NCBI GenBank assembly: GCA_900767195.1
Contig: CAAFYG010000078.1
Span: 32-64,031, forward strand
Origin: Clostridia bacterium
Lineage (GTDB): Bacteria; Bacillota; Clostridia; Christensenellales; Borkfalkiaceae
Direction: 5' to 3'
Length of the DNA stretch: 64,000 bases
In this document: in pieces, positions 1 to 63,270 of the stretch
Position numbering within the stretch: position 1 is the first letter of the stretch
How the letters are laid out: every line of letters starts with the position of its first letter
Made by a program: the position numbers and the translations under genes
The notes under the pieces: generated by a model
The model's database searches: none
Told to the model about the DNA's origin: nothing
Seen by the model: the letters and a program-made list of their open reading frames with translations, nothing else

Positions 1-84
1 GCGCGGCAGATTTTTATAAAAATTTATTTTACCATTCTTATTTTGCAAGAATTTTAACTTTTTTTTGGGAATTTTTTCAAATAG

Positions 85-265
85 AAAACAAGCTACGCCC
101 CTTGATTTTTAGAAATTTTTTGTCAAAAATATTCAGAAAATCAAAAATGGGCTTCGCCCCTTGATCTTCAGAAATTTCTTCCGAAATATTCAAAATATCA
201 AAAATCGGCTACGCCTCTCATCCGCCACCAAATGGCGACAGCTCCCTCCCCCGGGGGGGGGATAA
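85..265. repeat. Cluster of palindromic intergenic repeat units (family member A) ending in a G/C palindrome CCCCCGGGGGGGG
   Basis: Units 'cgccccttgattttcagaaatttcttccgaaatattcagaaaatcaaaaatgggct' repeated in tandem; same units recur at 11060, 22305, 31805, 59948. Confidence 0.7.
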
Positions 266-10946: not shown

Positions 10947-11030
10947 ATGTCAAGAAAGCAAAAATTCGACGGCGGCACGGCAAACGAACTTGCGCGGGCG
11001 GCGGCGAAAGAGTTTTCGCCTGTTTCGTAA
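10947..11030 (+). CDS. Small basic protein, 27 aa (MSRKQKFDGGTANELARAAAKEFSPVS), hypothetical
   Basis: ATG preceded by AAGGGGAAA RBS and consensus promoter 30 nt upstream; below ORF-track size cutoff. Confidence 0.4.
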   Translation: MSRKQKFDGGTANELARAAAKEFSPVS

Positions 11031-11059
11031 CGGATTGCTGCAAACTGTTTGAAATTTTA

Positions 11060-11350
11060 ATAACTGCCTTTGATATAGCCTTCCCCCTCGGGGGAAGGTG
11101 GACAAAGCAAAGCTTTGGACGGATGAGGGGCGCAGCATTTTTATGCGCAGCACATTTTTTGATTGAAATTTTTCCCCTGAAATTTTCAATCAAGGGGCGC
11201 AGCACATTTTTGATTTTCTGAATATTTCGGAAGAAATTTCTGAAGATCAAGGGGCACAACGCCTTTCGATATATAAAAAATCAAGCGGCGAAGCCGATTT
11301 TTGACTTTCCGAATATTTCGGAAGAAATTTCCGAAAAGCAAAAGGCGCGG
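11060..11350. repeat. Mosaic palindromic intergenic repeat cluster (family member B)
   Basis: Contains 'taactgcctttgatatagccttccccctcgggggaaggtggacaaagc...ggacggatgaggggcgcagc' plus tandem 'gattttctgaatatttcggaagaaatttctgaagatcaagggg' hairpin units; near-identical copy at 60055-60250. Confidence 0.75.
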
Positions 11351-11413
11351 CTTATCAAAGAACGATAATTCATTTTCAAGCAACAAATTTTATAAGCATA
11401 AGGAGCATTTTTT

Positions 11414-12127
11414 ATGACAAAGCCCAAAAAGAACCTGCTGATCGTATCGATCGCGCTGTTTGCGCTGTTTTTTGTATTCACGCTGCTTGTCGCCACCGTA
11501 GATGAAGCGGCAGGCAACGCGCCCGGCACAGAAATCGGCTTTTCGCATCTCAACCTTGCGTTTTTCAATGCCACGCACAAAAACGGCGAAATTTCAAACG
11601 GCTGGTATAAACTCACCGAATTTCTCGGCTATCTCGCCTTGGCGGAAGCGGCGGGTTTCGCGGTGTACGGCGTGGCGCAGCTGATTGTACGCAAGAGTCT
11701 GAAAAAAATCGACAAAGATCTGTTCGTGCTTGCGGCGGCATACGTACTGCTTGCGATTTTCTACGTAGCGTTCGAAAAAATCGTGGTAAACTACCGCCCC
11801 GTTCTCGAAAACGGCGAAATCGCGGCCTCCTATCCCTCCTCGCACACAATGCTCACAATCACAATCGCAAGCACCGGCATTTTCATGCTGCGCCGCAGAA
11901 TGACCTGTCGCCCCGCGCTCATTTCCGCAGAAACGCTTTCCGGCGCGGTGATGCTCGTCATGACGGTGGGCAGATTGCTTTCCGGCGTGCATTATTTCAC
12001 GGATATTCTGGGCGGCGTGCTGCTCGCGGCGGCGATCGTAATGCTTTTCGCCGCGTTCCTGCCCGCGCAAAGCGTGCAAGCCGCCGAACAGTCGTTCTCC
12101 ACAACAAACGGAGCAAACAACGAATGA
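11414..12127 (+). CDS. PAP2 superfamily phosphatase (membrane)
   Basis: PSSHT and SGVHYFTD motifs; AAGGAG RBS. Confidence 0.75.
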   Translation: MTKPKKNLLIVSIALFALFFVFTLLVATVDEAAGNAPGTEIGFSHLNLAFFNATHKNGEISNGWYKLTEFLGYLALAEAAGFAVYGVAQLIVRKSLKKIDKDLFVLAAAYVLLAIFYVAFEKIVVNYRPVLENGEIAASYPSSHTMLTITIASTGIFMLRRRMTCRPALISAETLSGAVMLVMTVGRLLSGVHYFTDILGGVLLAAAIVMLFAAFLPAQSVQAAEQSFSTTNGANNE

Positions 12128-12894
12128 ATTTTATCAAAGTAACGCAGGACAATATCGCCACGGAACACATCTGCTGCGCGATTTCAAACGAAAACGACGT
12201 GCAGGTATCTTCGAAAAAGGCTTGGCTGCGCGAACGTTTTCAAGACGGCTTAACCTTTTTAAAAGCGGATGCGCGGGGCAAATGTTTTATCGAATATCTG
12301 CCCGCCGAGCGCGGTTTCGAGCCGATTTCCGCGCCCGGATATATGCTGATTGATTGTTTTTGGGTGGCAGGCTCGCTCAAAGGCAACGGCTACGGCAAAG
12401 AGCTTTTGTCGCGCTGCATTGCGGATGCAAAATCGCAGGGCAAAATCGGGCTTTGCGCGATTTCTTCTGCAAAGAAACGACCGTATCTTTCCGATGGCGC
12501 GTTTTTGAAAAAAGCGGGGTTTCTTCTTGCCGACGAGGCCGCGCCCTACTTCACGCTTTTGTATCTGCCGTTTGAAAAAAGCGCAACCGAGCCAAAGTTT
12601 CTGCCGCAGGCGAAACGCCCGCAAACGCGCGGCTCGGGTTGGGAAATTTTCTACACGAACGCCTGCCCGTTCAACGCGAAATACGCGCCGCTTTTAAAGC
12701 AATTTGCCAACGAGCAGGGTATTCCGCTCACGCTGCGCCTGATCTCAACGCCCGAAGAAGCGCAGAAAATGCCGTTCGCGCACACCGCTTACGCCGCGTT
12801 TTACGGCGGCGAATACATAACCCACGAAGTGCTTACCGATAAAAAACTGCTCGCGCTGCACGAACGACTCGCGCCGCCCGCCGAAGAAAAATAG
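12124..12894 (+). CDS. GNAT N-acetyltransferase fused to YoaP-like C-terminal domain
   Basis: N-terminal acetyl-CoA binding fold 'LKGNGYGKELL'; C-terminal YoaP-like; ATGA overlap with upstream gene. Confidence 0.6.
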   Translation: MNFIKVTQDNIATEHICCAISNENDVQVSSKKAWLRERFQDGLTFLKADARGKCFIEYLPAERGFEPISAPGYMLIDCFWVAGSLKGNGYGKELLSRCIADAKSQGKIGLCAISSAKKRPYLSDGAFLKKAGFLLADEAAPYFTLLYLPFEKSATEPKFLPQAKRPQTRGSGWEIFYTNACPFNAKYAPLLKQFANEQGIPLTLRLISTPEEAQKMPFAHTAYAAFYGGEYITHEVLTDKKLLALHERLAPPAEEK

Positions 12895-19678: not shown

Positions 19679-19699
19679 AGTATTGCCTTTTTGATTTTT

Positions 19700-19832
19700 G
19701 CCTTATTCCAAGGCTTCCCCTTGCTTCATTTTGCTTACCGCAAAATTCAGCAAAAATTGTCAGCCTATTTCATAGGCTTCCCCTCGGGGGGAAGCTGTCC
19801 GTGAAACGGACGGATGAGGGGCAGTAACACAT
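19700..19832. repeat. Mosaic palindromic repeat cluster (family member C)
   Basis: 'ccaaggcttccccttgcttcattttgcttaccgcaaaattcagcaaaaattgtcagcc' + 'ggcttcccctcggggggaagc' + 'gacggatgaggggcagtaac'; shares modules with loci at 22305 and 11060. Confidence 0.7.
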
Positions 19833-19860
19833 TAAGCGTAAAGCAATCAAGAGCGCACGC

Positions 19861-20499: not shown

Positions 20500-20826
20500 G
20501 ATTTTCTCTCCCTTACGCCGCCGTTTTTTCTTCGCGAAACCCGCAAAAAAGGTACACCGCGCGCGATTTTAATTATTATAGCATATTTTGCTTAAAAATA
20601 CAACTGTTTATTGCCGAAACGCCGTGCAAATTTTTAACTTTTCTTTTCTCCGTTTCCGCCTCTTTTTTCGTGCGTCTTTTTCGCGCCGGACTGTTGCAAT
20701 TTGTATTTTTTTGTGCGTTTCGATAATTTTTTTATAAAAACTATCCCGAAACACTTGCATTTTTGTGAATTTTGTGATAAATTTTAATAGCAAAGCGAAT
20801 TTACCGAAAGAGGATAACCAGAAAAA

Positions 20827-22304: not shown

Positions 22305-22625
22305 TCTTTCCAAGGCTTCCCCTTGCTTCATTTTGCTCAACGCAAAACTCAGCAAAAATTGTCAGCCTCTTCGTGGCTTCCCCTTGCTTCATTTTGCTCA
22401 ATGCAAAATTCAGCAAAAATTGTCAGCCACTTCGTGGCTTCCCCTCGGGGGGAGGCTCTGCCCGATAGGGCGGTGGTGAGGGGCGTAGCATATTATGCTT
22501 AGCCCATTTTTGGTTTTCTGAATATTCCGGAAGGAATTTCCGAAAATCAAGGGGCGTAGCATTTTATGCGCAGCCCATTTTTTTGATTGAAAAATTTCGA
22601 TGAATTTTTTCAATCAAAGAGCGCA
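22305..22625. repeat. Mosaic palindromic repeat cluster (family member D, largest)
   Basis: Two tandem copies of 'ggcttccccttgcttcattttgctcaaCgcaaaaCtcagcaaaaattgtcagcc', 'ggcttcccctcggggggaggc', 'ggcggtggtgaggggcgtagc', then palindromic 'gattttc...gaaaatcaagggg' units. Confidence 0.75.
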
Positions 22626-22741
22626 ACATAACTCTTTAACGCCCGAATTTTCTTCGGCAAAGAAATGCGAAGCTTATCATTCGCGGCTCAGCCTTTTTAC
22701 GCCAAACTCAACACGCGAATCAGAAGCGAGCGTTTCGCGGC

Positions 22742-28087: not shown

Positions 28088-28206
28088 GTTTTTACTCCGG
28101 ATTGATGTTTTTTTCTGCCGATTTCAGCCGATTTTCCCCTGTTTTCAGGGTATTTTATGCCGATTTTCAGCCGTTTTTGCGCGATTTTTTTGTGTTTTTT
28201 TGCCTT

Positions 28207-29262
28207 TTAAGGGCATTTTTCCGCCGCAATATCGCCGTTTTCGGTGAGTTTTTTCACGTTTTCGCGGTCGATTTTATAGGGGCGGTCAAACGTGTTGTTT
28301 TTGAAAATCGCGTTTTTCACGCCCGCGAGATAAATGCGGTGTTCTTCATCTTCGGGGTTGAAAAAGTGATTGCCGTTAAGTACGAGCGTCCCCACCGTTT
28401 TCTTGCCGCCGCACGCCGTTTTTCCGTTTGTCCCGGGGCAATTTTCGCAGCCCGCTTCCGATGTGGGAAAGTACGCCACCGAATATTTTTCTTCGTATTT
28501 ATTGCCGCAGCCGTCCGCCACGTTGTTTTTAAATACGATCTTTTTTACGTACGCCGCGCCCGTATCTTCGCAGTCGCGCGCGCAAAGCGCCGCGCCGCCC
28601 GTACGCGAAAACGTGTTGCCCTCGATCGCGGCTTTGCCGCCCGCCGCATAATACACGCCTCTGCCCGCGTTGTCCGATACGTAGCTGTTTTTCACTTCGA
28701 GATTGCATTTTTCTTCGCCGCGCACCCCCGCGAAATCGCCCGCCGCGCCCGCGGCGCGCACCACGCAGCCGTCGATTTTCACCGTGCCGCGGCAGTCTTC
28801 AAAGCGGAAATATCCCGAGCATTTTTTGCCGTCGCCGTCTTTGAGCAGACATTCCGTTTTGAAAAGCTTCATATTCTTCACGCCGCGCGCGATCACGCCC
28901 GAGCCTTGAAAACGGCGGAATCGCACCCCCGAAAACGTGATATTTTCGCAGTTTTCCGCTATCGCGGCGGGCGCGGGATCGATTGCTTGCGCTTTTCCCG
29001 TTTCTTCGGCGTCAAAGTCCGCCGTAAGATTTTTCACCGTGATATTCTTACAGTCAAAAAACGCGAACGCCGAAACCGCGCCGTGGATTTTCAGCGCCGA
29101 GCCGCCGCCGTCGATCATGATATTTTTCTTACCTTTCAGCTCTACGGCGGCGTTCTCTTGCGCCGGCAGATCGGAGACGTACACATGGTACTCTCTGCCG
29201 TGTTCGAGGACGATTTTACCGCCGTCTTTGATTTCTGAAAATAATTCGCTTAATTCGTTCAT
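28207..29262 (-). CDS. Right-handed parallel beta-helix repeat protein (pectate-lyase-fold; putative glycanase)
   Basis: 351 aa; repeated 'N-x-x-hG/N' beta-helix rungs; GGGGAGAACT RBS. Confidence 0.55.
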   Translation of the reverse strand: MNELSELFSEIKDGGKIVLEHGREYHVYVSDLPAQENAAVELKGKKNIMIDGGGSALKIHGAVSAFAFFDCKNITVKNLTADFDAEETGKAQAIDPAPAAIAENCENITFSGVRFRRFQGSGVIARGVKNMKLFKTECLLKDGDGKKCSGYFRFEDCRGTVKIDGCVVRAAGAAGDFAGVRGEEKCNLEVKNSYVSDNAGRGVYYAAGGKAAIEGNTFSRTGGAALCARDCEDTGAAYVKKIVFKNNVADGCGNKYEEKYSVAYFPTSEAGCENCPGTNGKTACGGKKTVGTLVLNGNHFFNPEDEEHRIYLAGVKNAIFKNNTFDRPYKIDRENVKKLTENGDIAAEKCP

Positions 29263-29937: not shown

Positions 29938-30033
29938 GTAGTTTTACCTCGGTTGTTTTTATTTTTCGGCTGCCGTTTCCCGGCATGCCGACAAGAAAGT
30001 GTTCTCCGAAAACCTTTCGTTGTTTTTTGAATT

Positions 30034-31689: not shown

Positions 31690-31804
31690 AATTTTCCCTG
31701 TTATCCTGCGGATTTGAGCCGTCTGCGGCGTTTCACGCCGCATGATTTAGTGATTGATTAAAGTTTAGCTGCCAAAGATACAAAAACTTCGCCGTTTGTG
31801 TAAC

Positions 31805-32100
31805 CGCCCCTTGATTTTCAAAAATTTCTTGCGAAATATTCAGAAAATCAAAAATGGGCTGCGCCCCTTGATTGAAAATTTCTGATGGAAAAATTCAATC
31901 AAAAATGGGCTACGCCCCTTGATTTTCAGAAATTTCTTGCAAAATATTCAGAAAATCAAAAATGGGCTGCGCCCCTCATCAGTCGCTTTCAGCGACAGCT
32001 TCCCCCCCGGGGGGAAGCCTATGAAATAGGCGAAGATTAACTTTTAGACGATAGTGTTACAGTCCGTAACGAAACGGGCAATGCCCGCCCCGGGGGGAAG
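31805..32100. repeat. Mosaic palindromic repeat cluster (family member E): three tandem ~55-bp hairpin units plus G/C palindromes
   Basis: 'ccccttgattttcaNaaatttcttgcNaaatattcagaaaatcaaaaatgggctgcgcccc' x3 (middle unit variant), then 'agcttcccccccggggggaagcc' and 'cccgccccggggggaagcc'. Confidence 0.75.
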
Positions 32101-32304
32101 CCTTTTTTGCAACTTCAAAACGAAATTTTTTGCAGAAATAACGTTTTGCAGCTACAAACCGATTTTCGTTGCGTATGCGCGCGAAAGACACGAAGCGCGC
32201 GTATTTTGGAGCAGGAGCGTACAGAGACGTACGTGACTGCGACAAAAGCGCAAGCGCGACAAAGTATTTCGCGATGCAGACACGACGAAAAAACGTGCGA
32301 AAAA

Positions 32305-33852
32305 TTACTTTTTCGGTTTCATGGTGGGGAACAAAATCACATCCCGTATCGTTGCGCTGTCGGTTAAAAGCATGATCAGGCGATCTACGCCCATGCCCAG
32401 GCCGCCCGTGGGGGGTAAGCCGTATTCTAAGGCGTTGATGAAATCTTCGTCTACCTGCGCCGACATATTGCCCGCTTTGCGCTTCTCGTCCACCTGCTTT
32501 TGCATGCGCGCAAGCTGATCGATCGGATCGTTCAGTTCCGAAAACGCGTTGCCGTATTCATGCCCGCAGATAAAGTACTCAAACCGTTCCGTAAACGCCG
32601 GGTTCGAAGCCTTGCGCTTCGCAAGCGGCGAATTTTCCACGGGATAATCGTATATAATCGTAGGCTGAACGAGATTTTCTTCCACGAACGCGTCGAAAAA
32701 GTCAATCAGCACGTAGCCTTTCGTGGAATTCTCGCCATGCGAAAGCTCCACGTCTTTCGCCTTCGCCGCCGCGCGCGCTTCTTCATCCGTCTTCCAATCG
32801 TCGTAGCGCACGCCCGCGTATTTTTCCACCGCTTCCGCCATTGTAAAGCGCGTCCATTCGCCCATGTGAATTTCCGTTCCCTGATACGTGATATCCAGCG
32901 TGCCGCACACGTTTTTCGTCACCGTTTTGTAAAGATCTTCGATAAGATCCATCATGCCTTTATAATCGGTGTACGCCTGATACATTTCGATGGTGGTAAA
33001 CTCGGGGTTGTGGAAAGCGTCCATACCCTCGTTTCTGAAAATTCTGCCCACTTCGTATACGCGATCCAAGCCGCCCACAATCAGGCGCTTTAAGAAAAGC
33101 TCCGTTTCGATCCGCATATACATATCGATATTGAGCGCGTTGTGATGCGTTTTGAAAGGGCGGGCGTCCGCGCCGATTTCGAGCGGCAGCAATACGGGAG
33201 TATCCACTTCGAGATACCCTTTCGAATCAAGATACGCGCGTAACTCTTTCATGATTTTCGAACGCATGCGGAAGGTATTTTTCACGTCGTCGTTCATGAT
33301 AAGATCAAGATGGCGCAGGCGGTATTTCATGTCTTTATCCTGCAAGCCGTTGTACTTTTCGGGCAGCGGCAACAGCGATTTCGTAAGCAACGTAAGCTCG
33401 GTGACGTGTACCGTCACTTCGCCCGTCTGCGTTTTGAATACGAAGCCTTTGAAGCCGAAAATATCGCCGATATCGTAGTCTTTTTTGTACGAAAGATAGT
33501 TCTCTTCGCCGATATCCTGCCGCGTAACGTAGATCTGGATCGAGCCGCTTTTATCCGCGATGTGCGAAAACGAAGCCTTGCCCATAATCCGGCGCGACAT
33601 CATTCTGCCCGCCATCGTTACCGTCTTGCCCTCGTACGCCTCGAAATTCGCTTTGATCTGCGCGCTGTCCGCATCTACGGGGTATTTTACCTGCTCGTAG
33701 GGGTTCTTGCCCTCGCCTTGAAGTTTCGCGAGTTTTTCGCGGCGGATCCGCGCCTGCTCGACAAGCGTTTCCGCCGTCTGTTCGGGGGATTGCGCCGTCT
33801 GCGCCGCGGCGTTTTCCCGGGCTTGTCCTTGATACTGCTTGTTTTCTTCCAT
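32305..33852 (-). CDS. lysS: Lysine--tRNA ligase (class II)
   Basis: 515 aa; N-terminal OB anticodon-binding domain, class II motifs 1-3. Confidence 0.95.
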   Translation of the reverse strand: MEENKQYQGQARENAAAQTAQSPEQTAETLVEQARIRREKLAKLQGEGKNPYEQVKYPVDADSAQIKANFEAYEGKTVTMAGRMMSRRIMGKASFSHIADKSGSIQIYVTRQDIGEENYLSYKKDYDIGDIFGFKGFVFKTQTGEVTVHVTELTLLTKSLLPLPEKYNGLQDKDMKYRLRHLDLIMNDDVKNTFRMRSKIMKELRAYLDSKGYLEVDTPVLLPLEIGADARPFKTHHNALNIDMYMRIETELFLKRLIVGGLDRVYEVGRIFRNEGMDAFHNPEFTTIEMYQAYTDYKGMMDLIEDLYKTVTKNVCGTLDITYQGTEIHMGEWTRFTMAEAVEKYAGVRYDDWKTDEEARAAAKAKDVELSHGENSTKGYVLIDFFDAFVEENLVQPTIIYDYPVENSPLAKRKASNPAFTERFEYFICGHEYGNAFSELNDPIDQLARMQKQVDEKRKAGNMSAQVDEDFINALEYGLPPTGGLGMGVDRLIMLLTDSATIRDVILFPTMKPKK

Positions 33853-40530: not shown

Positions 40531-40914
40531 ATGAGTATATTCAAAAAACAAATCAAATTCATTTCGGCAATCTGCCCCGAATGTAAGGGAAACTTACAGC
40601 TCGACCCGAAGCTTGAAACGGCGATCTGTTCGAAGTGCGGCGCGCAAATTATCGTGCAGAACGCCCAAAAACCGAAAAAGCAAGGAAAGCTTGAAATCGT
40701 TTTCGACTTCGTGGAACGCCAGCAGGCGCGGCGAAAGCAGGAAAAGGAAGAAAAGCAACAAAAAGAAAAAGCCGAGCGCGAACGCGTTGAAGCAAAACGC
40801 GCCGAACGTAACAAAAAAATTTCCGAAAATCTTAAAGAAAATTGGTGGAAATATCTTTTGATCGGTATCGGCATTTGTCTGCTTTGTTCCGTACTTGCGA
40901 AAGCACTCGGCTAA
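40531..40914 (+). CDS. Zinc-ribbon domain protein with charged coiled-coil linker and C-terminal TM anchor
   Basis: CPECKG...CSKCG zinc ribbon; KR/E-rich stretch; C-terminal 'WWKYLLIGIGICLLCSVLA'; AAAGGAGGGT RBS. Confidence 0.55.
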   Translation: MSIFKKQIKFISAICPECKGNLQLDPKLETAICSKCGAQIIVQNAQKPKKQGKLEIVFDFVERQQARRKQEKEEKQQKEKAERERVEAKRAERNKKISENLKENWWKYLLIGIGICLLCSVLAKALG

Positions 40915-40925
40915 GGAGGTAAATC

Positions 40926-41804
40926 ATGGAAGAAACCGCTAAAAAACAAAGCGCAGTCGAAAAGGCGAAACTCGCCGCCATCAACGCGATCGACGAAAAC
41001 GGCAACGGAAAAATCGATCTGGAAGACGTGATTATCAAAGGCTTGAAAACGCCGGGCATCAAAATCAACCGCGCGGAATTTCTGACAAAAACGCTGAAAA
41101 AGCGTTTTCCGCAAGAAACGATCGACGCGGCGATCGCCGAATCGCCGATGCGTGCGAATATCGCGCAAGCCGAAATCGACAAAATGGCAAACGAAGCGAT
41201 CAATTTCGAACGCACGTGCGTTTCGGGCATTTCCGCCGCGCTCAGCGCGCCCGGCGGCGTGGCGATGGTTGCCACCGTTCCCGCCGATTTAATGCAATAT
41301 TACGCCTATCTTTTACGCATGGCGCAAAAACTGCTGTACTTATACGGTTTTCCGCAAATCGATACGGAAGAAACGGGCGAAAAATTCGACGACGGCACAA
41401 TGAACACGCTGATCCTTTGCTTCGGCGTGATGTACGGGGTAGCCGGCGCAAACAAAGCGTTGCTCACCGTTGCGAAAGCGCTTGGCGCGGGGTTATCGAA
41501 AAAGTTTATGCAAACCGCGGTTACAAAAGGTACGATTTACCCCGTTTTGAAAGCCATTCTGAAATGTTTTAACGTGAAGCTCACCAAACAGCTGGCTTCC
41601 AAAGCAATCAATCATTCGCTGCCCGTGATCGGCGGCGTGATCGGCGGCGGAATTACTTTTTTCTCGTTTAAATCGTGCGGGGAAAAATTGAAAAAAACTT
41701 TGTGCGACACTTATCTGAGCAACCCTGATTATCAGCCGCCGTTTGAAGACAAGGTTCAAAAAGACGCTTCGGAGGATGGCGTAAAAATGTCAAAAAAAGA
41801 ATAA
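40926..41804 (+). CDS. EcsC-family protein (probable)
   Basis: 292 aa; 'GGVAMVATVPADLMQYYAYLLRMAQKLLYLYGF' and 'LPVIGGVIGGGITFF' resemble the EcsC family; AAGGAGGT RBS. Confidence 0.5.
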   Translation: MEETAKKQSAVEKAKLAAINAIDENGNGKIDLEDVIIKGLKTPGIKINRAEFLTKTLKKRFPQETIDAAIAESPMRANIAQAEIDKMANEAINFERTCVSGISAALSAPGGVAMVATVPADLMQYYAYLLRMAQKLLYLYGFPQIDTEETGEKFDDGTMNTLILCFGVMYGVAGANKALLTVAKALGAGLSKKFMQTAVTKGTIYPVLKAILKCFNVKLTKQLASKAINHSLPVIGGVIGGGITFFSFKSCGEKLKKTLCDTYLSNPDYQPPFEDKVQKDASEDGVKMSKKE

Positions 41805-48203: not shown

Positions 48204-49733
48204 TTATTTCCGTTTCATTAAATACTTAATTTTTTCAAAAACAACTTTGAATTCGCGGGTTTTAAAGGAAACCGACAAAAACACGGCGTTCGGCAGCGCA
48301 ATGCAGATCGCGCCTTTTAAAAGCAGCCACAAAACGCCCGTTTCGGGCAGTTTAAAACACACGAAGCAGGTGAGCGCGCCCGCCGCCGCCACAACCATGG
48401 TATATAAAAGCATGCGCAGATAGTATTTTGCGGGCGAAAAGCCGAAGTAATTTTTGAAAAACGCGTGCGTTTCCCAAGGCATCGAAACCACGAAAACTCC
48501 GGCTATGGTAGCCACGATTGCGCCGTTTACGCCCATTTTACCGATCAACGCCAGCGAAAGCAGCAGCGTTACCGCGGCAACGGTGTACGGCTTGAAAAAG
48601 TCGTCTTTCCACATGCCCGCCGCGTCTTTGTAGGTGGAAAGAATATCTTTGAATTTCCAAAGGTACAAAAGCAGCGCAAACAAAAATGCGGAAGAGTTGC
48701 CGAGCATTTTATCTTCGTCGCCGTTCATCCAGATGCGCATAAAGTGCTGAAACAGGCACAAAAGCGTGATGGACATCCATCCCACGAGCCACACGTTCAG
48801 AAAGGTGAGCGTATTGAAATCGTCGTAATTTTTCTTTACGTCCGCCGTAACGATATTGTTGCCGATGCCCGCCGTAAGCGCAGTGTACAGCACGGAAATA
48901 ATGGCGATAAGGGAATTTACGATATAGAAATAATTGTTGTACACGCCGAGAGTTTCCAACCCGAGGCGCGAAGAAATCACGATATTCGTGCCGGAAAAAA
49001 TCACCGTGCCGCTTAAGCGATGCCCGATCATCGCGCCGATATTTTTAAAAACGGCTTTCTTTTCCGCCTCGCCGAGCGTATCTTCCGCTTTGTAATCGGG
49101 GTATTTTTTATTGACGTACGCCGATCGCGCGAGATTGACGGATAGCGTGCAAAGCGGCAAAAACACGATATACACGTAGTAATTTTTAAAAATCAGCAGC
49201 ACCGCCACCTGCAAAACGTACATGGCGATATACGAAATCGTCATAATCACGTTTTCGATATCGTTGCGCTGAAACGCCGCAAGCAGCACGCTTTTATACG
49301 CGAACACAAAGTAGCTCACCACCGTGTTGGCAAGGTATATAAAATACAGAATGTATAAATTGATGTCCGCGGGAGCTTCGCCTTTGATCAGTTTTGGCAA
49401 AAACGGCGTAACGGCAAGCCCCGCAACGAGAATCGCCGCGCCCACGATATAATACACCTTTCGGATAAAGCCGAGCAGGGCGCACACAAGCGGCCTGTTA
49501 TCTTCCGCCACGGGTTTGTACATGGCAAACGCCACCACCGTGGAAAAGCCGAGTTCGGAAAGCGACAGCACCTGCAAAAGCGATGTGAAAAGCGAGCCTA
49601 ACCCGGCATATTCGATGCCGAGTTTCCGGATTAAAATCGTGCGGATGGCGAAGGGGAAAAGCAAGCACACCACGCGATAGATAATGCCGCTGACGGAATT
49701 TTTCACGGCGTTTTTCGTTCTTTCTATTTGCAT
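48204..49733 (-). CDS. MOP-superfamily polysaccharide biosynthesis protein / oligosaccharide flippase (Wzx-like)
   Basis: 509 aa, ~14 TM, N-terminal 'KNSVSGIIYRVV...IRKLG' typical of PF01943. Confidence 0.65.
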   Translation of the reverse strand: MQIERTKNAVKNSVSGIIYRVVCLLFPFAIRTILIRKLGIEYAGLGSLFTSLLQVLSLSELGFSTVVAFAMYKPVAEDNRPLVCALLGFIRKVYYIVGAAILVAGLAVTPFLPKLIKGEAPADINLYILYFIYLANTVVSYFVFAYKSVLLAAFQRNDIENVIMTISYIAMYVLQVAVLLIFKNYYVYIVFLPLCTLSVNLARSAYVNKKYPDYKAEDTLGEAEKKAVFKNIGAMIGHRLSGTVIFSGTNIVISSRLGLETLGVYNNYFYIVNSLIAIISVLYTALTAGIGNNIVTADVKKNYDDFNTLTFLNVWLVGWMSITLLCLFQHFMRIWMNGDEDKMLGNSSAFLFALLLYLWKFKDILSTYKDAAGMWKDDFFKPYTVAAVTLLLSLALIGKMGVNGAIVATIAGVFVVSMPWETHAFFKNYFGFSPAKYYLRMLLYTMVVAAAGALTCFVCFKLPETGVLWLLLKGAICIALPNAVFLSVSFKTREFKVVFEKIKYLMKRK

Positions 49734-55959: not shown

Positions 55960-56087
55960 ATTTTCCGAGCCGATAGAAACGGGCTTTTTAAGTTTTGATT
56001 TTTTTTCGTTTTTTTGCCTGTCAAGGCGAAAAATCGGCAAAAACAAACGCCTGGAATCTTCGAGACTGGAAAGAGGAGGTAATACAC

Positions 56088-56886: not shown

Positions 56887-57411
56887 ATGAAAAAATTTTT
56901 AAAAACCTTTTTGGCGGCATTTATCGCAGTAATCGCGCTGGCGTTTGCCGCCTGCGGCGGAATATTCGAAGGAAACATCGGCATCAGCGACAACGACAAA
57001 ACAAAAACGGAAAATGCCGTTCGTTTGCTGTACGAAACGGATGATTCTATCAAAAACGGTTACGAAATGAAGTGCAAAATCCGTGCTGAAAAAAACGCGG
57101 ATCTTAACAGAGATTTTATATTTGCCTTATCTTCTTCCGACCCGAATTTTTCGGATTCTTACACGGAATATACGTTATTTATGGCGAGAGGCAGCGATAT
57201 CGCGGCACTGAAGAAAGACGACGGTTCGTACGGGGATTTGCAGTTTATCGTTAAATTCGACGACCTTTCGAAATATTTCGAAGAAACTCAGGAAGAAAAA
57301 AAGGTTTATTTCGTATTACACTCCATAGGAGACGAAAAAAGCATATTTACTTATTCCTCCTCTTCTTACAATTACACTTTCGACGGAAAAAAACTGAAGC
57401 TTTCGTGGTAA
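56887..57411 (+). CDS. Putative lipoprotein (signal peptide with lipobox LAFAAC)
   Basis: MKKFLKTFLAAFIAVIALAFAACGG...; AAGGAACGAAAAACC RBS. Confidence 0.6.
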   Translation: MKKFLKTFLAAFIAVIALAFAACGGIFEGNIGISDNDKTKTENAVRLLYETDDSIKNGYEMKCKIRAEKNADLNRDFIFALSSSDPNFSDSYTEYTLFMARGSDIAALKKDDGSYGDLQFIVKFDDLSKYFEETQEEKKVYFVLHSIGDEKSIFTYSSSSYNYTFDGKKLKLSW

Positions 57412-57529
57412 ATTTTTACAGGAGAAAAAGTTACCGAATCATTTCGTAATCCGGGCGGAAATGCAAAACGTATTTTTTCACAGCGGAAAAAATTTTTTGA
57501 AAATTATGTGAAACCAGGCGTTTATTCGC

Positions 57530-57781: not shown

Positions 57782-58345
<564 letters not shown>

Positions 58346-59907: not shown

Positions 59908-59946
59908 TACCGCCGCGGGCGATCGTCCGCGGCGGTATTTGTTTTA
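59908..59946 (+). terminator. Rho-independent terminator after pyrP
   Basis: ACCGCCGCGG-gcgatcgtc-CGCGGCGGT-ATTTGTTTT. Confidence 0.6.
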
Positions 59947-59947
59947 A

Positions 59948-60250
59948 TAATTGCCTATACTATAAGCCTTCCCCCCGGGGGGCGGGCGTCGCCCGTTTCG
60001 TAACGCACCCACAGGGTGTTTCGTAACAGACTTTTACAAACAGCTTACAATTTTAATAATTGCCTTTGATATAGCCTTCACCTCGGGGGGAAGGTGGACA
60101 AAACGAAGTTTTGGACGGATGAGGGGCGTAGCCCATTTTTGATTTTTTGAATATTTCGGAAGAAACTTCTGAAAATCAAGGGGCGCAGCTTGTTTTCCGC
60201 TAAGCCCATTTTTTTTCTGAATTTTTTTGAGAAAAAATTTCAGAAAAAAA
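59948..60250. repeat. Mosaic palindromic repeat cluster (family member F), near-duplicate of cluster at 11060
   Basis: 'taattgcctttgatatagccttcacctcggggggaaggtggacaaaacgaagttttggacggatgaggggcgtagcccatttttgatttttt gaatatttcggaagaaacttctgaaaatcaaggggcgcagc'. Confidence 0.75.
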
Positions 60251-60294: not shown

Positions 60295-60813
60295 TTATAA
60301 ATAAATCACCCGATCGCCTTTCGCTCGCAGAAACTTTTTCACGGTGTACGCCGTGCCTCCCTTTTCTTTTCGCAAAAAAGCAATCAAGGTATCCGCCGCT
60401 TCCGCAAGACGATCGTTGCGATAGCTCATACACCACCTTGTATACTCTTCGAAAAACGTTTTCGAAAGCGTGGGGTCGGCGTTGTCTTTCAGATGCATAT
60501 ACCGAGCGATTTCTTCGTCGTTCATTTTTTCGTACTGTTTTTCGTAGGGAACGTACGCAATCAGCCGTATTTGCGGATACAATTTTTTCAAAGAAAGCAC
60601 ACATTCGCCCGCGAGCATGTCAAAACCGCGCGCCATACCGCAATAAAAATCCGTCGCGCCGTTTTTTATGCAATTTTCTACCGTTTCGTACAGTTTCGCG
60701 GCGGAAAAATCGGGGTATTTTTCAATTTCTCTGTGCCCAGTAAACGCTACGCTTTTTATCGGCTTTTCCATTTGTAAAAGCTCGATTTTCAGTTGTTTTT
60801 GCTGTGTTTCCAT
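60295..60813 (-). CDS. DUF1273 (YpsA-like, SLOG superfamily) protein
   Basis: 'SVAFTGHRE' N-terminal motif and overall YpsA-like layout. Confidence 0.65.
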   Translation of the reverse strand: METQQKQLKIELLQMEKPIKSVAFTGHREIEKYPDFSAAKLYETVENCIKNGATDFYCGMARGFDMLAGECVLSLKKLYPQIRLIAYVPYEKQYEKMNDEEIARYMHLKDNADPTLSKTFFEEYTRWCMSYRNDRLAEAADTLIAFLRKEKGGTAYTVKKFLRAKGDRVIYL

Positions 60814-60827
60814 CGTTTTTTTTGCCT

Positions 60828-61526
60828 TTACAGCGGTTGTTTTCTCTCTTTTCCGTTCCCGCGCGGGTATTTCGCCGGCGTCTGATTTACTTTTTTCACC
60901 ACGGCAAGATTTCTCTCGCCGTATCCTTCGGGCAGCTCATAGGGGAAAATTTCCGTTTTCTCTCCTCCAAGCTCTTTCACGGCGCGTTTCGCTTCATCTA
61001 TTTCCGCCGTATCCGCGCTTTTATAGGCGATAAAAGCTCCGCCTTTTTTCACGAGCGGCATCGAATATTCGCACAAAACGTTCATCCGCGCCACCGCCCG
61101 TGCCACCGCAAAATCAAAATTTTCGCGGTACTTTTTCTCCCGCGCGGCGTCCTCGGAACGCATATTACAAATATTCATTCCAAAAAACCCGAGTTTATCC
61201 ACAATAAACCTTAAAAAATCGCACTTTTTCCCAACGCTTTCAAACAAGGTAAAACGCAGATCTTCCCGCAAAATTTTGAGCGGCACCGAAGGAAACCCCG
61301 CGCCCGATCCGATTTCGGCAACGCTCGCGCCTTGAAAAAACAACTCGCGCGCCGCCGCCGAATCGAGAAAATGCTTATACGTCACGTCCTTTTCTCCGGT
61401 GATCGCGGTGAGATTATATTTTTCGTTGAATTCAAGCAAATAAGCGCGGAAAGCTTCGAATTTTTCGCGATATTCCCCGCAGATCAGCCTTAAATTTTCT
61501 TCTGTATTCACAACGAATTTTTCCAT
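60828..61526 (-). CDS. rsmG: 16S rRNA (guanine527-N7)-methyltransferase RsmG (GidB)
   Basis: 'NLTAI', 'HFLDS', 'ASVAEIGSGAGFPSVPLKI' SAM-binding motifs. Confidence 0.9.
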   Translation of the reverse strand: MEKFVVNTEENLRLICGEYREKFEAFRAYLLEFNEKYNLTAITGEKDVTYKHFLDSAAARELFFQGASVAEIGSGAGFPSVPLKILREDLRFTLFESVGKKCDFLRFIVDKLGFFGMNICNMRSEDAAREKKYRENFDFAVARAVARMNVLCEYSMPLVKKGGAFIAYKSADTAEIDEAKRAVKELGGEKTEIFPYELPEGYGERNLAVVKKVNQTPAKYPRGNGKERKQPL

Positions 61527-61589
61527 ACGTCCATTATATCACAAGCCTGAAAAAAACACAAGTTTTTTTAATACCTCTCTTTATTTTCC

Positions 61590-61900
61590 TTTTTCCACAG
61601 ATTCCACATTTTATTGTTTCTGCTTTTTCCACTTATCCACATTTTCTGTGGATAACTTTTATTTTTTCATAATTATGCATTTTTTTCTTATATTTGCACG
61701 GTCAATTTTCCCACGATTTTGTTTTTCTTCCACTTATCCACATTTTTCTTCCACCTTTCTTCCACAAATTTTATTCTCTTTTCCACATTCTAAAAAAGCT
61801 TGAAAATAAAGGGATTTTTCGCGTTTTTTTTCTCTTATCCACAATTCCACTCCGCCTAATATTATTACTAATATTCGATATGTAATAACAATCAACTGCA
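61590..61900. other. oriC-like DnaA-box cluster plus AT-rich unwinding element
   Basis: Perfect TTATCCACA at 61633-61641 (+), 61647-61655 (-), 61734-61742 (+), 61835-61843 (+); one-mismatch boxes at 61591, 61779; AT-rich 61858-61900. Confidence 0.75.
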
Positions 61901-62016
61901 CGGAAAGAGCCGCAAATTTTTTGGGGATCTAAGAAAAATTTTTTCGTCCGCGCAGATCCTATCGGAAAGGGAAAAACGAAAATCAAAAGAAATTTTTTTA
62001 TATAAAAGATTTTTGC

Positions 62017-62045
62017 TTGCAAAAATACACGGAATATGGTACAAT
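62017..62045 (+). promoter_or_regulatory. dnaN promoter TTGCAA-17-TGgTACAAT (extended -10) with ~120-nt leader
   Basis: ttgcaaaaatacacggaatatggtacaat. Confidence 0.45.
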
Positions 62046-62169
62046 GTACGGGTGAGAATAAGGCTTTTTCTCTGTTTTGTTATCATTTTCTTCTTGCCGC
62101 GGTAAAGCGGAAAGAAACCGGGTATACACAGAAAAAAGAAAAGCCGTTTCAAGGGAGGTTTAGCAAGCT

Positions 62170-63270
62170 ATGAAATTCGTATGCGATTCCATCGATTTAT
62201 CTTACGCGGCAGGCACCGTGGTGAAAGCCTGCGCCGTGAGAACTCTCACGCCCGTGCTTGAATGTATCAGAATGCAGGTGAAAAACGACGGCGTTACGCT
62301 TTCCGCTTACGACGGCGAACTTTCGATCGAAAAAAGCTTTAAAGCAGACGTTCTGGAAGAAGGCGAAGCATGCGTGAACGGCAGACTTTTCACCGATTTT
62401 ATCGGCAAAATCGGCAATACGCAGATCACCGTAGGCACGGAAGAGCAAGGTCTTGAAATTCGCTACGACGATTCGCGTTCGTTTATGCAGGTGCTTCCCG
62501 CCGACGAATTTCCTCGCCTCGACTGCGGCGAAAGTATCGGCTCGTTCGAAGTGGAAGAAGGCAAATTCAAAAATCTCGTGGCGCGCAGTATTTTTTGTTG
62601 CGCGTCCGATGATTCCCGCCCTATTTTAAAGGGCTGTCTTTTAGAAACGGAAGGCGGCATGCTCCGCGCTTCCGCGCTCGACGGCTACCGTATGGCCACC
62701 ACCGAATGTGAAATCGCCGGCGGCGACGACGGCAAAAAAATCGTATGCCCGGCGCGTACGCTCGGCGAAATTTCAAGAATGCTCGCGGGGGCGGATAAGC
62801 TTTTAAAAGTAGAATTTTCGGCGAACCATCTGCGCGTCGTCGTAGACGAAACCACGCTGATTTCTCGCTTGTATACGGGCGAATTCGTAAAGCGCGAGAA
62901 TATTTTCCCGCCTTCATTCACCACGGAAGTCACTTTGAAGCGCACGGAACTTATCGAGAGCGTAGAGCGCGCGAGCGTTCTTATCCGCGGCGAGAAAAAC
63001 AACCTGATCATTATGGAAGTGAAAGGCGGCGCGGTGTACGTAACGGCAAATTCCGAAATCGGCAACGTGGCGGAAAAGGTGAACGCCGTGCTTGAAGGCA
63101 AAGAAATCCGCATCGCCATGAACGGAAAATACGTGCTTGACGCTTTAAAAGCGCTCGACGAAGAAGAGATCGTGATGTATATGAATACGCCGATCGCGCC
63201 GTTCGTTCTGAAAAATAAAAAAAATAAATACGGGGCATATCTCATTTTACCTGTGAGAACAACCGCATAA
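62170..63270 (+). CDS. dnaN: DNA polymerase III subunit beta (sliding clamp)
   Basis: 366 aa, three-domain clamp; 'ARTLGEISRML', C-terminal 'LILPVR'; AGGGAGG RBS. Confidence 0.95.
   Translation: MKFVCDSIDLSYAAGTVVKACAVRTLTPVLECIRMQVKNDGVTLSAYDGELSIEKSFKADVLEEGEACVNGRLFTDFIGKIGNTQITVGTEEQGLEIRYDDSRSFMQVLPADEFPRLDCGESIGSFEVEEGKFKNLVARSIFCCASDDSRPILKGCLLETEGGMLRASALDGYRMATTECEIAGGDDGKKIVCPARTLGEISRMLAGADKLLKVEFSANHLRVVVDETTLISRLYTGEFVKRENIFPPSFTTEVTLKRTELIESVERASVLIRGEKNNLIIMEVKGGAVYVTANSEIGNVAEKVNAVLEGKEIRIAMNGKYVLDALKALDEEEIVMYMNTPIAPFVLKNKKNKYGAYLILPVRTTA

Follow-up and report, generated by a model that had tools for sequence, protein, structure and literature searches.

A modular family of intergenic hairpin repeats in an uncultured human-gut Clostridia bacterium

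Six intergenic loci in the 64,000-nucleotide stretch of DNA analysed here (the window), from an uncultured human-gut Clostridia bacterium, are on balance best read as copies of a modular, non-coding and non-autonomous intergenic hairpin repeat of the BOX/BIME/NIME kind that slippage and ectopic recombination have remodelled. The repeat family is unnamed; it belongs to a known kind of bacterial repeat and is not a new kind of system. Its modules follow one polar order, which is constant across related loci ([X/TA or M54], P1, P2, K, AT-rich units, tail), with one head (P1, P2 and K) per cluster, and the repeats are restricted to intergenic DNA.

Six clusters and their modules

The initial annotation described six intergenic regions sharing a set of modules, and all six do carry them. 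Self-comparison (self-BLAST of the six gaps against the window) gave matches confined to the six gaps, except for one 24-nt match at chance level, and a repeat finder reported the same repeat families in the window (D1, D3, D4, D5, D8, D9, D13 and D17). The unit junction GGGGCGNAGCNCATTTTTGAT is present in 7 copies in the window (0.00 expected from shuffled controls) and the 9-mer GGGGAAGSC in 9 copies (0.71 expected). All nine copies of the 9-mer lie inside clusters and none in genes, and the idea of a DNA-uptake sequence was rejected. With filters switched off, a covariance model of the head detected exactly six full heads in the window, one in each cluster. P1, P2 and unit hairpins were found in intergenic DNA only, and the tRNA/tmRNA scan found none.

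The head is about 50 nt long. P1 is a G+C hairpin, G[G/C]CTTCCCC-N4-GGGGAAG[C/G], P2 is a hairpin of conserved shape and free sequence, and K is an invariant block, [T/G]GATGAGGGGC, which would be single-stranded in the explanation favoured here. M54 modules are 54-nt hairpins located 5′ of P1. The AT-rich units, found in the genus of the window (about 50% GC), are tandem hairpins of 51/57 nt, each ending in a GGGGCGNAGCC mini-hairpin; an array holds zero to four of them after the head and before the tail, and the units of one cluster are all in direct orientation. Of 65 arrays, 58 are directly preceded by K on their own strand. The features of the window are the following, with the basis of each in brackets.

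60-101, minus strand: locus 1, degenerate terminal unit and tail, GGGGCGTAGCTTGTTTTCTAT... on that strand (direct reading)
102-217, minus strand: locus 1, two type-1 AT-rich hairpin units, hairpins at 102-144 and 161-201, with a GGGGCGNAGCC mini-hairpin after each (repeat finder D1, D4 and D9, self-BLAST, junction motif)
211-262, minus strand: locus 1, diverged head (covariance model, 27.8 bits, E 2.7e-6)
11021-11077, plus strand: locus 2, upstream modules, a GTTTCGTAAC block and a TTTTAATAACTGCCTTTGATATAGCC 'TA' block (repeat finder D8 and D13, self-BLAST, 82-85% identical to 60017-60073)
11078-11133, plus strand: locus 2, type ii head, CCTTCCCC..GGGGAAGG, with P2 GGACAAAGC-AAA-GCTTTGGAC and K GGATGAGGGGC (covariance model, 51.7 bits)
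11134-11353, plus strand: locus 2, array of three units, a type-2 hairpin at 11159-11193, a type-1 hairpin at 11210-11250 and a diverged type-1 hairpin at 11301-11341 (repeat finder D3, self-BLAST)
19712-19765, minus strand: locus 3, one M54 unit (repeat finder D5, folding)
19775-19824, plus strand: locus 3, type i head with P2 GTCCGT-GAA-ACGGAC (covariance model, 70.1 bits)
22314-22428, minus strand: locus 4, the focal locus, two M54 units (22314-22367 and 22375-22428) with a 61-nt period, joined by small P0 hairpins (repeat finder D5, folding)
22436-22486, plus strand: locus 4, head, GGCTTCCCCTCGGGGGGAGGC, with P2 CTGCCC-GATA-GGGCGG, which includes a U.G pair, and K TGGTGAGGGGC (covariance model, 65.4 bits)
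22487-22627, plus strand: locus 4, two units, a type-1 hairpin at 22510-22550 and a type-2 hairpin at 22583-22617, and a terminal block AGAGCGCAAC (repeat finder D3, self-BLAST)
31789-31968, minus strand: locus 5, tail GGGGCGGTTACACAAACGGCG and three units, type-1 hairpins at 31919-31959 and 31811-31851 and a type-2 hairpin at 31868-31902 (repeat finder D1 and D4, self-BLAST, junction motif)
31969-32019, minus strand: locus 5, type i head downstream of lysS (32305-33852), with P2 GTCGCT-GAA-AGCGAC and K TGATGAGGGGC (covariance model, 65.1 bits)
32020-32104, minus strand: locus 5, modules upstream of the head, a P0 hairpin GCCTATTTCATAGGC, an 'X' block GGGCATTGCCCGTTTCGTTACGG..., and AAAAAA followed by a second half-palindrome GGCTTCCCCCCGGGG (self-BLAST)
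59942-60073, plus strand: locus 6, upstream modules, a TA block and a solo P1-like palindrome (59942-59986), two blocks of a hairpin plus GTTTCGTAAC, and a second TA block at 60051-60073 (repeat finder D13, self-BLAST)
60074-60129, plus strand: locus 6, type ii head with a diverged P1, CCTTCACCTCGGGGGGAAGG (covariance model, 45.4 bits)
60130-60250, plus strand: locus 6, one type-1 unit (hairpin at 60139-60179) and one degenerate unit (repeat finder D3, self-BLAST)

The head of locus 1 begins 35 nt past the stop of a YitT-family gene (297-1253), and the tail type of this locus, GGGGCGNAGCTTGTTTTCTAT, is also present in other loci. The first GCGNAGC mini-hairpin of locus 2 is extended (GCGCAGCATTTTTATGCGCAGC), and in locus 4 an extended hairpin of this type stands before each unit (GCGTAGCATATTATGCTTAGC and GCGTAGCATTTTATGCGCAGC). 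The M54 unit of locus 3, whose better-folding strand is the minus strand (sense for cysS), ends 34 nt before the start of that gene; the M54 units of locus 4 are sense to a SLOG-family gene whose start, at 22273, is 41 nt away. Locus 6 begins directly past the terminator of a permease gene (59908-59937) and ends before the terminator (60266-60248, minus strand) of a convergent YpsA-family gene.

Tandem units of about 55 bp had been listed among the shared modules of the six regions; they are present at five, whereas locus 3 (19679-19860) has only M54, head and tail (GGGGCAGTAACACATTAAGCG, to about 19860) and possesses no 55-57-nt AT-rich unit. The reported 54-bp unit exists, restricted to loci 3 and 4 with a period of 61 nt. 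The clusters at 11060 and 59948 are near-duplicates as described, with 82-85% identity over about 124 nt (11021-11145 against 60017-60141). A genuine multi-copy mosaic intergenic family is present, but its modules do not mix freely, the order being fixed and polar. The clusters were said to lie between gene ends, often convergent ones, which holds for locus 6, the only locus of the window between convergent genes, but loci 2, 3 and 4 are directly upstream of gene starts (of PAP2, cysS and the SLOG gene, respectively). The polar order, the rule of one head per cluster, the wider distribution of the head and the hypervariability among strains were absent from the initial annotation.

Structure of the head and of the units

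Among 44 heads, pairing cells amounted to 94.3%, against 74.2% in shuffles. The covariation score was 0.481 against 0.152 in shuffled alignments; none of 500 shuffles reached 0.481, and the score was at most 0.131 with partners slid. These counts, and those of strand asymmetry given below, take in related copies and therefore overstate the number of independent events. The hairpins show compensatory base changes: in P2 double changes affect all six pairs, each of which occurs in up to four types, and the bottom pair of P1 alternates between G-C and C-G. G.U pairs outnumber C.A pairs (18 vs 7), and tandem G.A pairs, U.G pairs and GNRA-like loops are present. Loops of P2 are mostly C-GNA-G or C-AAA-G triloops, or GNRA; C-GNA-G triloops are exceptionally stable in DNA. 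In the type-1 unit, the apical pairs alternate between U-A and C-G, and conservation extends to a T.T mismatch and a bulged T. Folding of the focal region is far stronger than that of its shuffles on both strands (z of -8.2 and -7.6).

The modules have a preferred folding strand. The strand named here was the better folder in 50 of 55 distinct AT-rich unit hairpins and in 49 of 51 heads, while for M54 the opposite strand folded better in 22 of 22 units. In gut relatives a two-part palindrome is common, in which two unlike heads face each other across a hairpin of about 44 nt, about 145 nt in total, and K pairs with its complement; convergent pairs account for 68 of 313 heads in these relatives. 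P1 and K are invariant across genera, in carriers with a GC content from 46 to 68%.

Two other readings of the head were rejected. A hammerhead ribozyme at CUGAUGAG of type i heads lacks a GAAA strand past the next stem, has a variable core (other heads read GGAUGAG, GAAUGAG or UGGUGAG at this place) and matches no Rfam model; an inactive hammerhead-like RNA listed in Faecalibacterium (PMC3088659) offered no usable link to the heads. A small ORF was rejected because the lengths of loops and stems vary out of frame.

Distribution and variation among strains

The head is widespread in human-gut Clostridia. It was found in at least 120 human-gut metagenome stretches with a GC content of 46-68%, with 225 heads in 951 kb of gut-metagenome stretches. 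The AT-rich units were present in just 18 of 126 gut-metagenome loci, and their junction was detected in only three related uncultured Clostridia genomes; four further single matches in other phyla equal the roughly four expected by chance, by our own estimate for a pattern of 19 specified bases. Recurrence of the family is thus not limited to the six loci, and extends to the three related genomes, the gut-metagenome stretches and 20 conspecific strain contigs. The initial annotation had not recognised the element as a named one, and Rfam gave no match: a scan of the window found none at gathering score or with E<=1, and a scan of six related loci with two-part elements found none on the elements with E<=0.1. 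The search of a plasmid collection gave no match, that of a phage collection gave unannotated faecal virome fragments only, and a literature search on the motif strings and UMGS509 retrieved nothing relevant.

UMGS509 possesses an orthologous head after lysS with a different P2, and so the element is kept at lysS in two species. This retention, together with the invariance of P1 and K across genera of very unlike GC, would also be compatible with selection for a host function.

Ten strains were compared with the window, with 97.8-99.0% identity over 12.5 kb of coding DNA. Locus 4 differs in all eleven strains, window included, with a length of 340-607 nt, at least four head types, one, two or four M54 units and one to three AT-rich units. 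Locus 3 has at least five P2 types and lacks the head in two strains. Locus 5 is without any element at one extreme and has a head with three units at the other, with zero, one or three units in other strains. The head of locus 2 recurs upstream of PAP2 in six strain loci, scoring the 51.7 bits of the window in L040, L041, L042 and L048 and 51.0 in L043; L045 has a higher-scoring head there (61.0 bits). Turnover among conspecific strains is thus very fast. Most differences look like replacement of whole intergenic alleles, not to clean insertion or excision, and in some strains the element is missing at the same locus with nothing else changed. Inter-strain recombination, without transposition, could account for much of the variation.

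The element had been proposed to be mobile, which may hold, and two cases bear on this. L045 alone carries a near-copy of the lysS cluster, of about 400 nt, after tmk, at a site that is empty in other strains; the insertion lies directly after TTCA, as in the empty site, with no clear target duplication. In five strains two overlapping genes are separated by an insert of about 375 nt that has two heads and is accompanied by a 10-bp duplication; the outer parts of this insert were unique in the sample examined. However, no consistent target duplication and no associated transposase were found for the family. No target duplication was found among 31 distinct two-part elements, and the clusters of the window lack terminal inverted repeats because they have one head each; the two-part elements of about 145 nt in relatives have inverted repeats in a loose sense. 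A MITE would differ from these elements by its fixed-length target-site duplication (0 of 31 two-part elements, and a single 10-bp case). Clustering of the proteins encoded beside heads revealed no recurrent family, only ordinary genes. A DUF559 gene is flanked by head arrays, at probably one orthologous locus only. The idea of an integron-like cassette was rejected, as the two-gene cassette at 40531-41804, which is present or absent, has no heads at its borders.

Origin, possible functions and known relatives

In the explanation that we favour, unit numbers would change via slipped-strand mispairing or unequal crossing-over, and heads would be exchanged among dispersed copies by ectopic recombination (gene conversion), with the invariant blocks as homology. 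Whole clusters would now and then reach new intergenic sites by a route that mostly leaves no target duplication. The constraint on hairpin shape probably acts on the single-stranded form (ssDNA or RNA) of one strand. For the host, the elements may mostly be tolerated passengers; when transcribed, they would add stable hairpins to 3′ or intercistronic RNA.

The likeness to a BOX element, seen in the initial annotation, is borne out by the architecture, with terminal modules and a variable number of tandem internal units. Similar to BOX of S. pneumoniae and S. suis (boxA-boxB(n)-boxC; PMC3049150), the family has fixed end modules and internal units of about 45-60 nt that fold alone, varies in unit number by strain, has no coding capacity and gains extra modules in related species (boxD/E/F in BOX; M54, X and TA here). 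However, the host lineage is another one and the modules appear to be unlike boxA/B/C. The clusters of the window also have one head with no inverted partner, conserved blocks that frame hairpins of free sequence, head types swapped at one locus between strains, and a head that spans genera of 46-68% GC.

REP/BIME sequences of Enterobacteria and Pseudomonas (PMC3184786) are likewise short (20-40 nt), multi-copy extragenic imperfect palindromes in mosaics with linker motifs, enriched near gene ends or between convergent genes and at sites of genome plasticity, without target duplication. A strict REP/BIME assignment does not hold: BIMEs alternate REP orientation, whereas the units here are AT-rich direct tandems of 51-57 nt, and the GTAG head is not conserved, since the middle base of GCGNAGC is free (T, C or A). 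In addition, no REP-associated transposase was seen in 1.4 Mb with an approximate query.

The Neisseria repeat dRS3 has the form ATTCCC-N8-GGGAAT, to be compared with CTTCCCC-N4-GGGGAAG of P1. Like NIMEs, in which RS blocks are framed by dRS3 inverted repeats (PMC3184786), the family has variable blocks within a short conserved CCC...GGG inverted repeat, and variable loci whose alleles are shuffled by recombination. It differs in its Gram-positive gut anaerobe hosts, in that no link to phage integration or surface-antigen loci was seen, and in the K block, the P2 hairpin and the tandem AT-rich units, which have no NIME counterpart.

The elements could instead be host-functional RNA, the heads and two-part palindromes being elaborate, often bidirectional terminators or 3′-end stabilisers selected at gene ends, with repetition secondary. 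We regard this as unlikely, while giving it some weight. The hairpins are very stable, the element is kept after lysS in two species, and 8 of 15 two-part elements have convergent genes on their two sides, with a gene end often 4-60 nt away. In these genomes of 60% GC, an initial TTT or a final AAA was seen in about 40% of the outer flanks of two-part elements, and at least four A in the 6 nt outside P1 were found in 20% of heads against 6% in the background. There is a precedent in pneumococcal SPRITE (PMC3049150), which has terminator-like ends close to gene 3′ ends, as do the two-part palindromes in high-GC relatives, and such a role would also resemble that of E. coli REP in mRNA decay. 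However, SPRITE is one long stem with a U-rich tract, which most heads lack, and several clusters of the window are upstream of genes. P1 has the strong G+C hairpin of an intrinsic terminator, but a real A/U tract accompanies a fifth of heads only, and none of the P1 hairpins of the window was flagged by a consensus terminator scan. At five loci, scans for promoters and terminators gave no consistent signal, and none convincingly framing the clusters. Locus 6 sits between the canonical terminators of its two neighbouring genes, and loci 3 and 4 precede genes that need expression. Relative to the upstream gene, 35 heads point the same way and 25 the opposite way, with no fixed relation of the structured strand to gene direction. 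Furthermore, the element is absent at the same locus in some strains with no other change, and ordinary terminators do not need conserved sequence.

It is rather improbable that the clusters are REP-like or IS200/IS605-like ssDNA elements, of which an HUH/tyrosine enzyme encoded elsewhere would cut and paste one strand beside a short target without duplication. Such a process would agree with a strand that folds better regardless of gene orientation, with the conserved mismatched and bulged bases of the type-1 unit, with the C-GNA-G triloops in P2 and the GCGNAGC mini-hairpins, and with the lack of target duplication. The outer flank of heads has the consensus TT[A/C]AA, with A at position -1 in 74%, and the insertion in L045 follows TTCA. 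Against it, tblastn with IS200 TnpA and the E. coli REP-associated transposase gave no match to a Y1/HUH transposase in the 1.4 Mb of element-rich DNA searched, although the approximate queries make this a weak test. The six heads of the window show no bias to replication direction (four plus and two minus within a single replichore). P2 varies freely in sequence, unlike REP hairpins, which each family conserves; there is no conserved GTAG, and one insert has a 10-bp duplication. The head might also serve, in the form of ssDNA, as a site for structure-specific recombination or transposition, read by its shape and invariant blocks in the way of integron attC sites and REPs, and its user might be an enzyme common to many human-gut Clostridia; we give this proposal a small chance. 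It would explain free-sequence hairpins in invariant frames, GNA triloops, strand asymmetry, and the swaps of heads and arrival of whole clusters at new sites without target duplication.

Independent small-RNA genes, with a promoter in the 'TA'/P0 region, a start at P1 and an end at GGGC-GNA-GCCC mini-terminators with U5, are very unlikely. The better-folding strand is that of such a transcript, U.G pairs, tandem G.A pairs and GNRA-like loops occur, and each unit junction consists of a short G+C hairpin and then U5-7. The TA type has a conserved GTTTGAAAT block some 30 nt before P1, and a promoter-like site with 10 of 12 matches is located just upstream of the locus 6 head. However, no promoter-like site was found at loci 2, 3, 4 or 5, M54-type clusters have no such upstream block, and 4-bp stems are too weak as terminators. 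Make-up and copy number vary by strain, which is unexpected for a functional RNA gene, and there is no Rfam relative.

The least credible alternative is that the clusters are protein-binding arrays, the halves of the type-1 unit being two CodY-like boxes, so that clusters would titrate or recruit a global regulator. The 15-mers GATTTTCTGAATATT and AAATTTCTGAAAATC, conserved parts of this unit with a variable stem between them and centres 22 nt apart, each match the CodY box AATTTTCWGAAAATT (PMC5314169, PMC10415144) at 13 of 15 positions, and the window has 24 matches with up to three mismatches (8.6 expected), 14 of them in clusters; nevertheless, any AT-rich TTC/GAA palindrome resembles this box, type-2 units and heads do not match it, the count outside clusters equals chance, tblastn for CodY with an approximate query found no match in 1.4 Mb, and the positions of the clusters have no link to genes of amino-acid metabolism.

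Returning to the modular intergenic repeat, its definition by head, two-part palindrome and lineage-specific add-ons is usable to mask and annotate metagenome assemblies, which often break at such elements. Strains with 98-99% identity differ in their clusters, which can therefore be used directly to track strains, much as BOX-PCR is in pneumococci. That invariant blocks frame hairpins of free sequence over a range of 46-68% GC points to selection acting on a single strand in its folded form, and gives a definite starting point in the search for the protein or process by which that strand is read. If the elements terminate or stabilise transcripts, they would shape expression beside housekeeping genes such as cysS and lysS.

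Repeat clusters of the window and their module order

The initial annotation had proposed that the focal region 22305-22625 (locus 4) and five other intergenic loci carry one repeat family, and both self-BLAST of the six gaps against the whole window and a repeat finder confirmed these as genuine repeats. The six gaps match only one another, and their repeats are all sorted into common families. The unit junction GGGGCGNAGCNCATTTTTGAT is present in 7 copies in the window versus 0.00 in shuffles, and the 9-mer GGGGAAGSC in 9 copies versus 0.71, all within clusters and none in genes. Folding of the focal region was much stronger than that of shuffles on both strands (z -8.2 and -7.6). The neighbours of the clusters are ordinary chromosomal genes, including YitT family, mgtE, PAP2, cysS, a SLOG gene, ROK, lysS, a permease, and a YpsA-family gene. 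The search of the window against Rfam, even at E<=1, gave no family match, and no tRNA was found in the window.

Once oriented to one strand, named R (plus at loci 2, 3, 4, and 6; minus at loci 1 and 5), all clusters share one module order.

Modules of the clusters, 5' to 3' on the R strand
Position 1, upstream modules (optional): X blocks and a TTTTAATAAYTGCCTTTGATATAGCC block, or M54
X block, upstream module: hairpin plus GTTTCGTAAC
M54, upstream module: 54 nt, one or two copies, linked by small P0 hairpins
Position 2, head: P1, then one base, then P2, then K
P1, in the head: G+C hairpin G[G/C]CTTCCCC-N4-GGGGAAG[C/G]
P2, in the head: hairpin of 5-9 bp, its sequence varying among copies
K, in the head: block [T/G][G/A][A/G]TGAGGGGC
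Position 3, AT-rich units: 0-3 per cluster
Type 1 unit: 41-43-nt hairpin TTGATTTTCTGAATATTTCGGAAGAAATTTCTGAAAATCAA
Type 2 unit: 35-nt hairpin TTGATTGAAA..TTTCAATCAA
End of both unit types: GGGGCGNAGCC mini-hairpin, extended in some copies
Position 4, tail: end of the cluster

A covariance model built on 44 heads detected a single full head in each cluster, six in total, and none elsewhere in the window; four are on the plus and two on the minus strand, inside one replichore as indicated by GC skew. Among all loci examined, K lies immediately upstream of 58 of the 65 AT-rich arrays, on the same strand, and two more arrays are at contig ends.

Other features were observed in the window. The gap 61527-62169, between rsmG/gidB (60828-61526, minus) and dnaN (62170-63270, plus), contains three 29-nt repeats (61617-61645, 61718-61746, and 61819-61847; 101-nt spacing), each with a perfect DnaA box TTATCCACA; dnaA is absent between these repeats and dnaN, and GC skew shifts from -0.18 to +0.11 near 62 kb. 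This gap is probably the chromosomal replication origin. T-tract repeats with 10-11-nt phasing (CGATTTTCAGCCGTTTTT...), a spacing typical of intrinsically curved DNA, were found at 28108-28220, in the gap adjoining a GH2 gene, and also at 60783-60842 and 55997-56026; they show no kinship with the cluster modules.

Distribution, structure and strand preference of the head

The range of the family is wider than was visible from the window alone. The unit junction pattern was found in 34 stretches of three uncultured Clostridia reference genomes (UMGS509, CALARO01, and CALAFO01), which do not include the window's own genome; four single matches in unrelated phyla are about chance level by our own estimate. 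UMGS509 is syntenic with the window at 84-89% nucleotide identity, and its orthologous element after lysS has two units versus three in the window, and a different P2. The head pattern was present in at least 120 metagenome-contig stretches, nearly all from human gut, and in six more in viral contigs, where the unit junction gave no match. In total, 225 heads were located in 126 loci (951 kb, GC 46-68%), with AT-rich units in 18 loci and M54 in 14; thus, the head forms the broadly distributed core, to which a lineage of about 50% GC has added units and M54.

In high-GC contigs the usual form is a two-part palindrome of 139-155 nt, in which a type ii head (GCC..AAGG, K = GGATGAGGGGC) opposes a reversed type i head (GGC..AAGC, K = CTGATGAGGGGC) across an imperfect hairpin of about 44 nt. 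The two K blocks pair over 10 invariant base pairs, and compensatory variation is found in P2a, P2b, and the central stem. The outer flank consensus is TT[A/C]AA, with A at -1 in 74%, and a genuine A tract lies outside 20% of heads versus 6% in the background. Eight of fifteen two-part elements sit between convergent genes. Neither a match in Rfam nor a consistent target duplication was found for the two-part palindromes. Contig L064 (1410-1760; also L142 and L119) carries a 117-aa DUF559 gene (Vsr-like endonuclease fold) with head arrays on both sides, in which consecutive tandem heads vary solely in the P2 loop or stem. Since these arrays are probably one orthologous locus, they do not indicate a general association of DUF559 with heads.

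The share of paired cells in the head alignment was 94.3% versus 74.2% in shuffles, and the covariation score was 0.481 versus 0.152, reached by none of 500 shuffles and falling to 0.131 or less with partners slid by 1-3 columns. Double changes occur at all P2 pairs, with up to four pair types, and the bottom pair of P1 is G-C in some heads and C-G in others. In type 1 units the two apical pairs switch between U-A and C-G, and the units retain a T.T mismatch plus a bulged T. These patterns indicate that head and unit structure is under constraint. All of these counts include related copies and therefore exceed the number of independent events.

Of 55 distinct unit hairpins, 50 fold better on the R strand, as do 49 of 51 heads. 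M54 folds better on the opposite strand (22 of 22), because its U.G run reads C.A on R. Heads contain 18 G.U versus 7 C.A pairs, and tandem G.A pairs are also present. P2 loops are mostly triloops C-GNA-G or C-AAA-G, or GNRA, and in GCGNAGC the free N is the central base of a triloop of the C-GNA-G type. GNA-type triloops are unusually stable in DNA.

Turnover among conspecific strains

Twenty conspecific gut-metagenome contigs were found by exact look-up of two window proteins; the first ten match the window at 97.8-99.0% identity across 12.5 kb of coding sequence.

States of three clusters among strains
Locus 4 (focal): 11 of 11 sequences distinct; 340-607 nt; M54 in one, two, or four copies; one to three units; four or more head types
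Locus 3: five or more P2 types; head missing in two strains
Locus 5: no element, a lone head, or up to a head with three units

Locus 5 states and the three divergent haplotypes of its flanks are freely combined. Exchange of alleles between strains may explain a large part of the variation. Changes in unit number would be as expected from slippage or unequal crossing-over, and head replacement at a fixed locus with P2 types existing elsewhere would be as expected from ectopic recombination via the invariant blocks.

Two events resemble arrival at a new site. In L045 only (1853-2356), a composite of about 400 nt lies directly 3' of the tmk stop codon. It comprises X, M54, a head, and three units, and is nearly a copy of the cluster found some 1.5 kb away, downstream of lysS. 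In the window (29938-30033) and nine other strains this site is empty, and no clear target duplication was seen at the composite. The second is an insert of about 375 nt with two back-to-back heads in five strains, L175 (3767-4154), L179, L180, L182, and L183, at a site where the window has two genes with a 10-nt overlap (49724-49733). A 10-bp duplication, TTATGCAAAT, flanks the insert and leaves both reading frames intact; the outer parts of the insert are unique within the sample examined. Such rare whole-cluster arrivals show that the clusters have some ability to reach new sites; a mobilising enzyme was looked for in the sequences examined and none was identified.

A head-bearing cluster lies upstream of PAP2 in the window (11031-11413) and in six strain loci (L040-L043, L045, and L048, about 20.0-20.5 kb), with the same or a near-identical head in five of the six and a different one in L045. 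Beyond it lies mgtE in the window; in L040, L041, L042, and L048, the four strains read there, a TetR-family gene takes this place. A YoaP-like neighbour (12124-12894) was found in some strains only. As gene order differs beyond this cluster, clusters coincide with gene-order breaks. Other polymorphisms were also present. A distinct element of 161 nt, whose terminal inverted repeats are AAGGCAACGCC...GGCGTTGCCTT, occupies the gap between DeoR and a 212-aa gene in L039, L041, L043, and L044, and is missing from the window (empty site 20500-20826) and six other strains; it represents a classical MITE-like insertion polymorphism within the same species. Between clpX and lon, on the opposite strand, is the two-gene cassette 40531-41804, which encodes a zinc-ribbon protein of 127 aa and a protein of 292 aa without Pfam match. 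The cassette is missing in L176, L178, L181, and L183, is replaced by a 78-aa gene in L177, and has no heads at its borders.

Nature of the family

Taken together, the data fit a modular repeat that is non-autonomous and of the BOX/BIME/NIME type (PMC3049150, PMC3184786). The main alternative is that the elements serve the host as terminators or stabilisers of RNA, which is supported by their position and by the U tracts of a minority. However, locus 6 sits between two canonical terminators, clusters precede cysS and the SLOG gene, presence differs between strains, and there is no orientation bias: by rough gene calls the R strand runs with the upstream gene in 35 cases and against it in 25, with no fixed relation. 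A reading of the clusters as small RNAs lacks promoters, as no promoter-like site was found at loci 2, 3, 4, or 5.

Each of the two conserved halves of the type 1 unit matches the CodY box at 13 of 15 positions, and the window holds 24 CodY-box-like matches versus 8.6 expected, the surplus coming wholly from the clusters; this resemblance may serve as a lead only. The best such site outside clusters, AATTTTTTGAAAATT (57491-57505, one mismatch), is in the gap between genes 56887-57411 and 57794-58345.

The repeat family is genuine and unnamed, and as a modular repeat it belongs to a known class of bacterial intergenic repeats. It is notable for its polar architecture with one head, for invariant frames around hairpins of free sequence over a wide GC range, for an intrinsic strand preference, and for very rapid turnover at the strain level.
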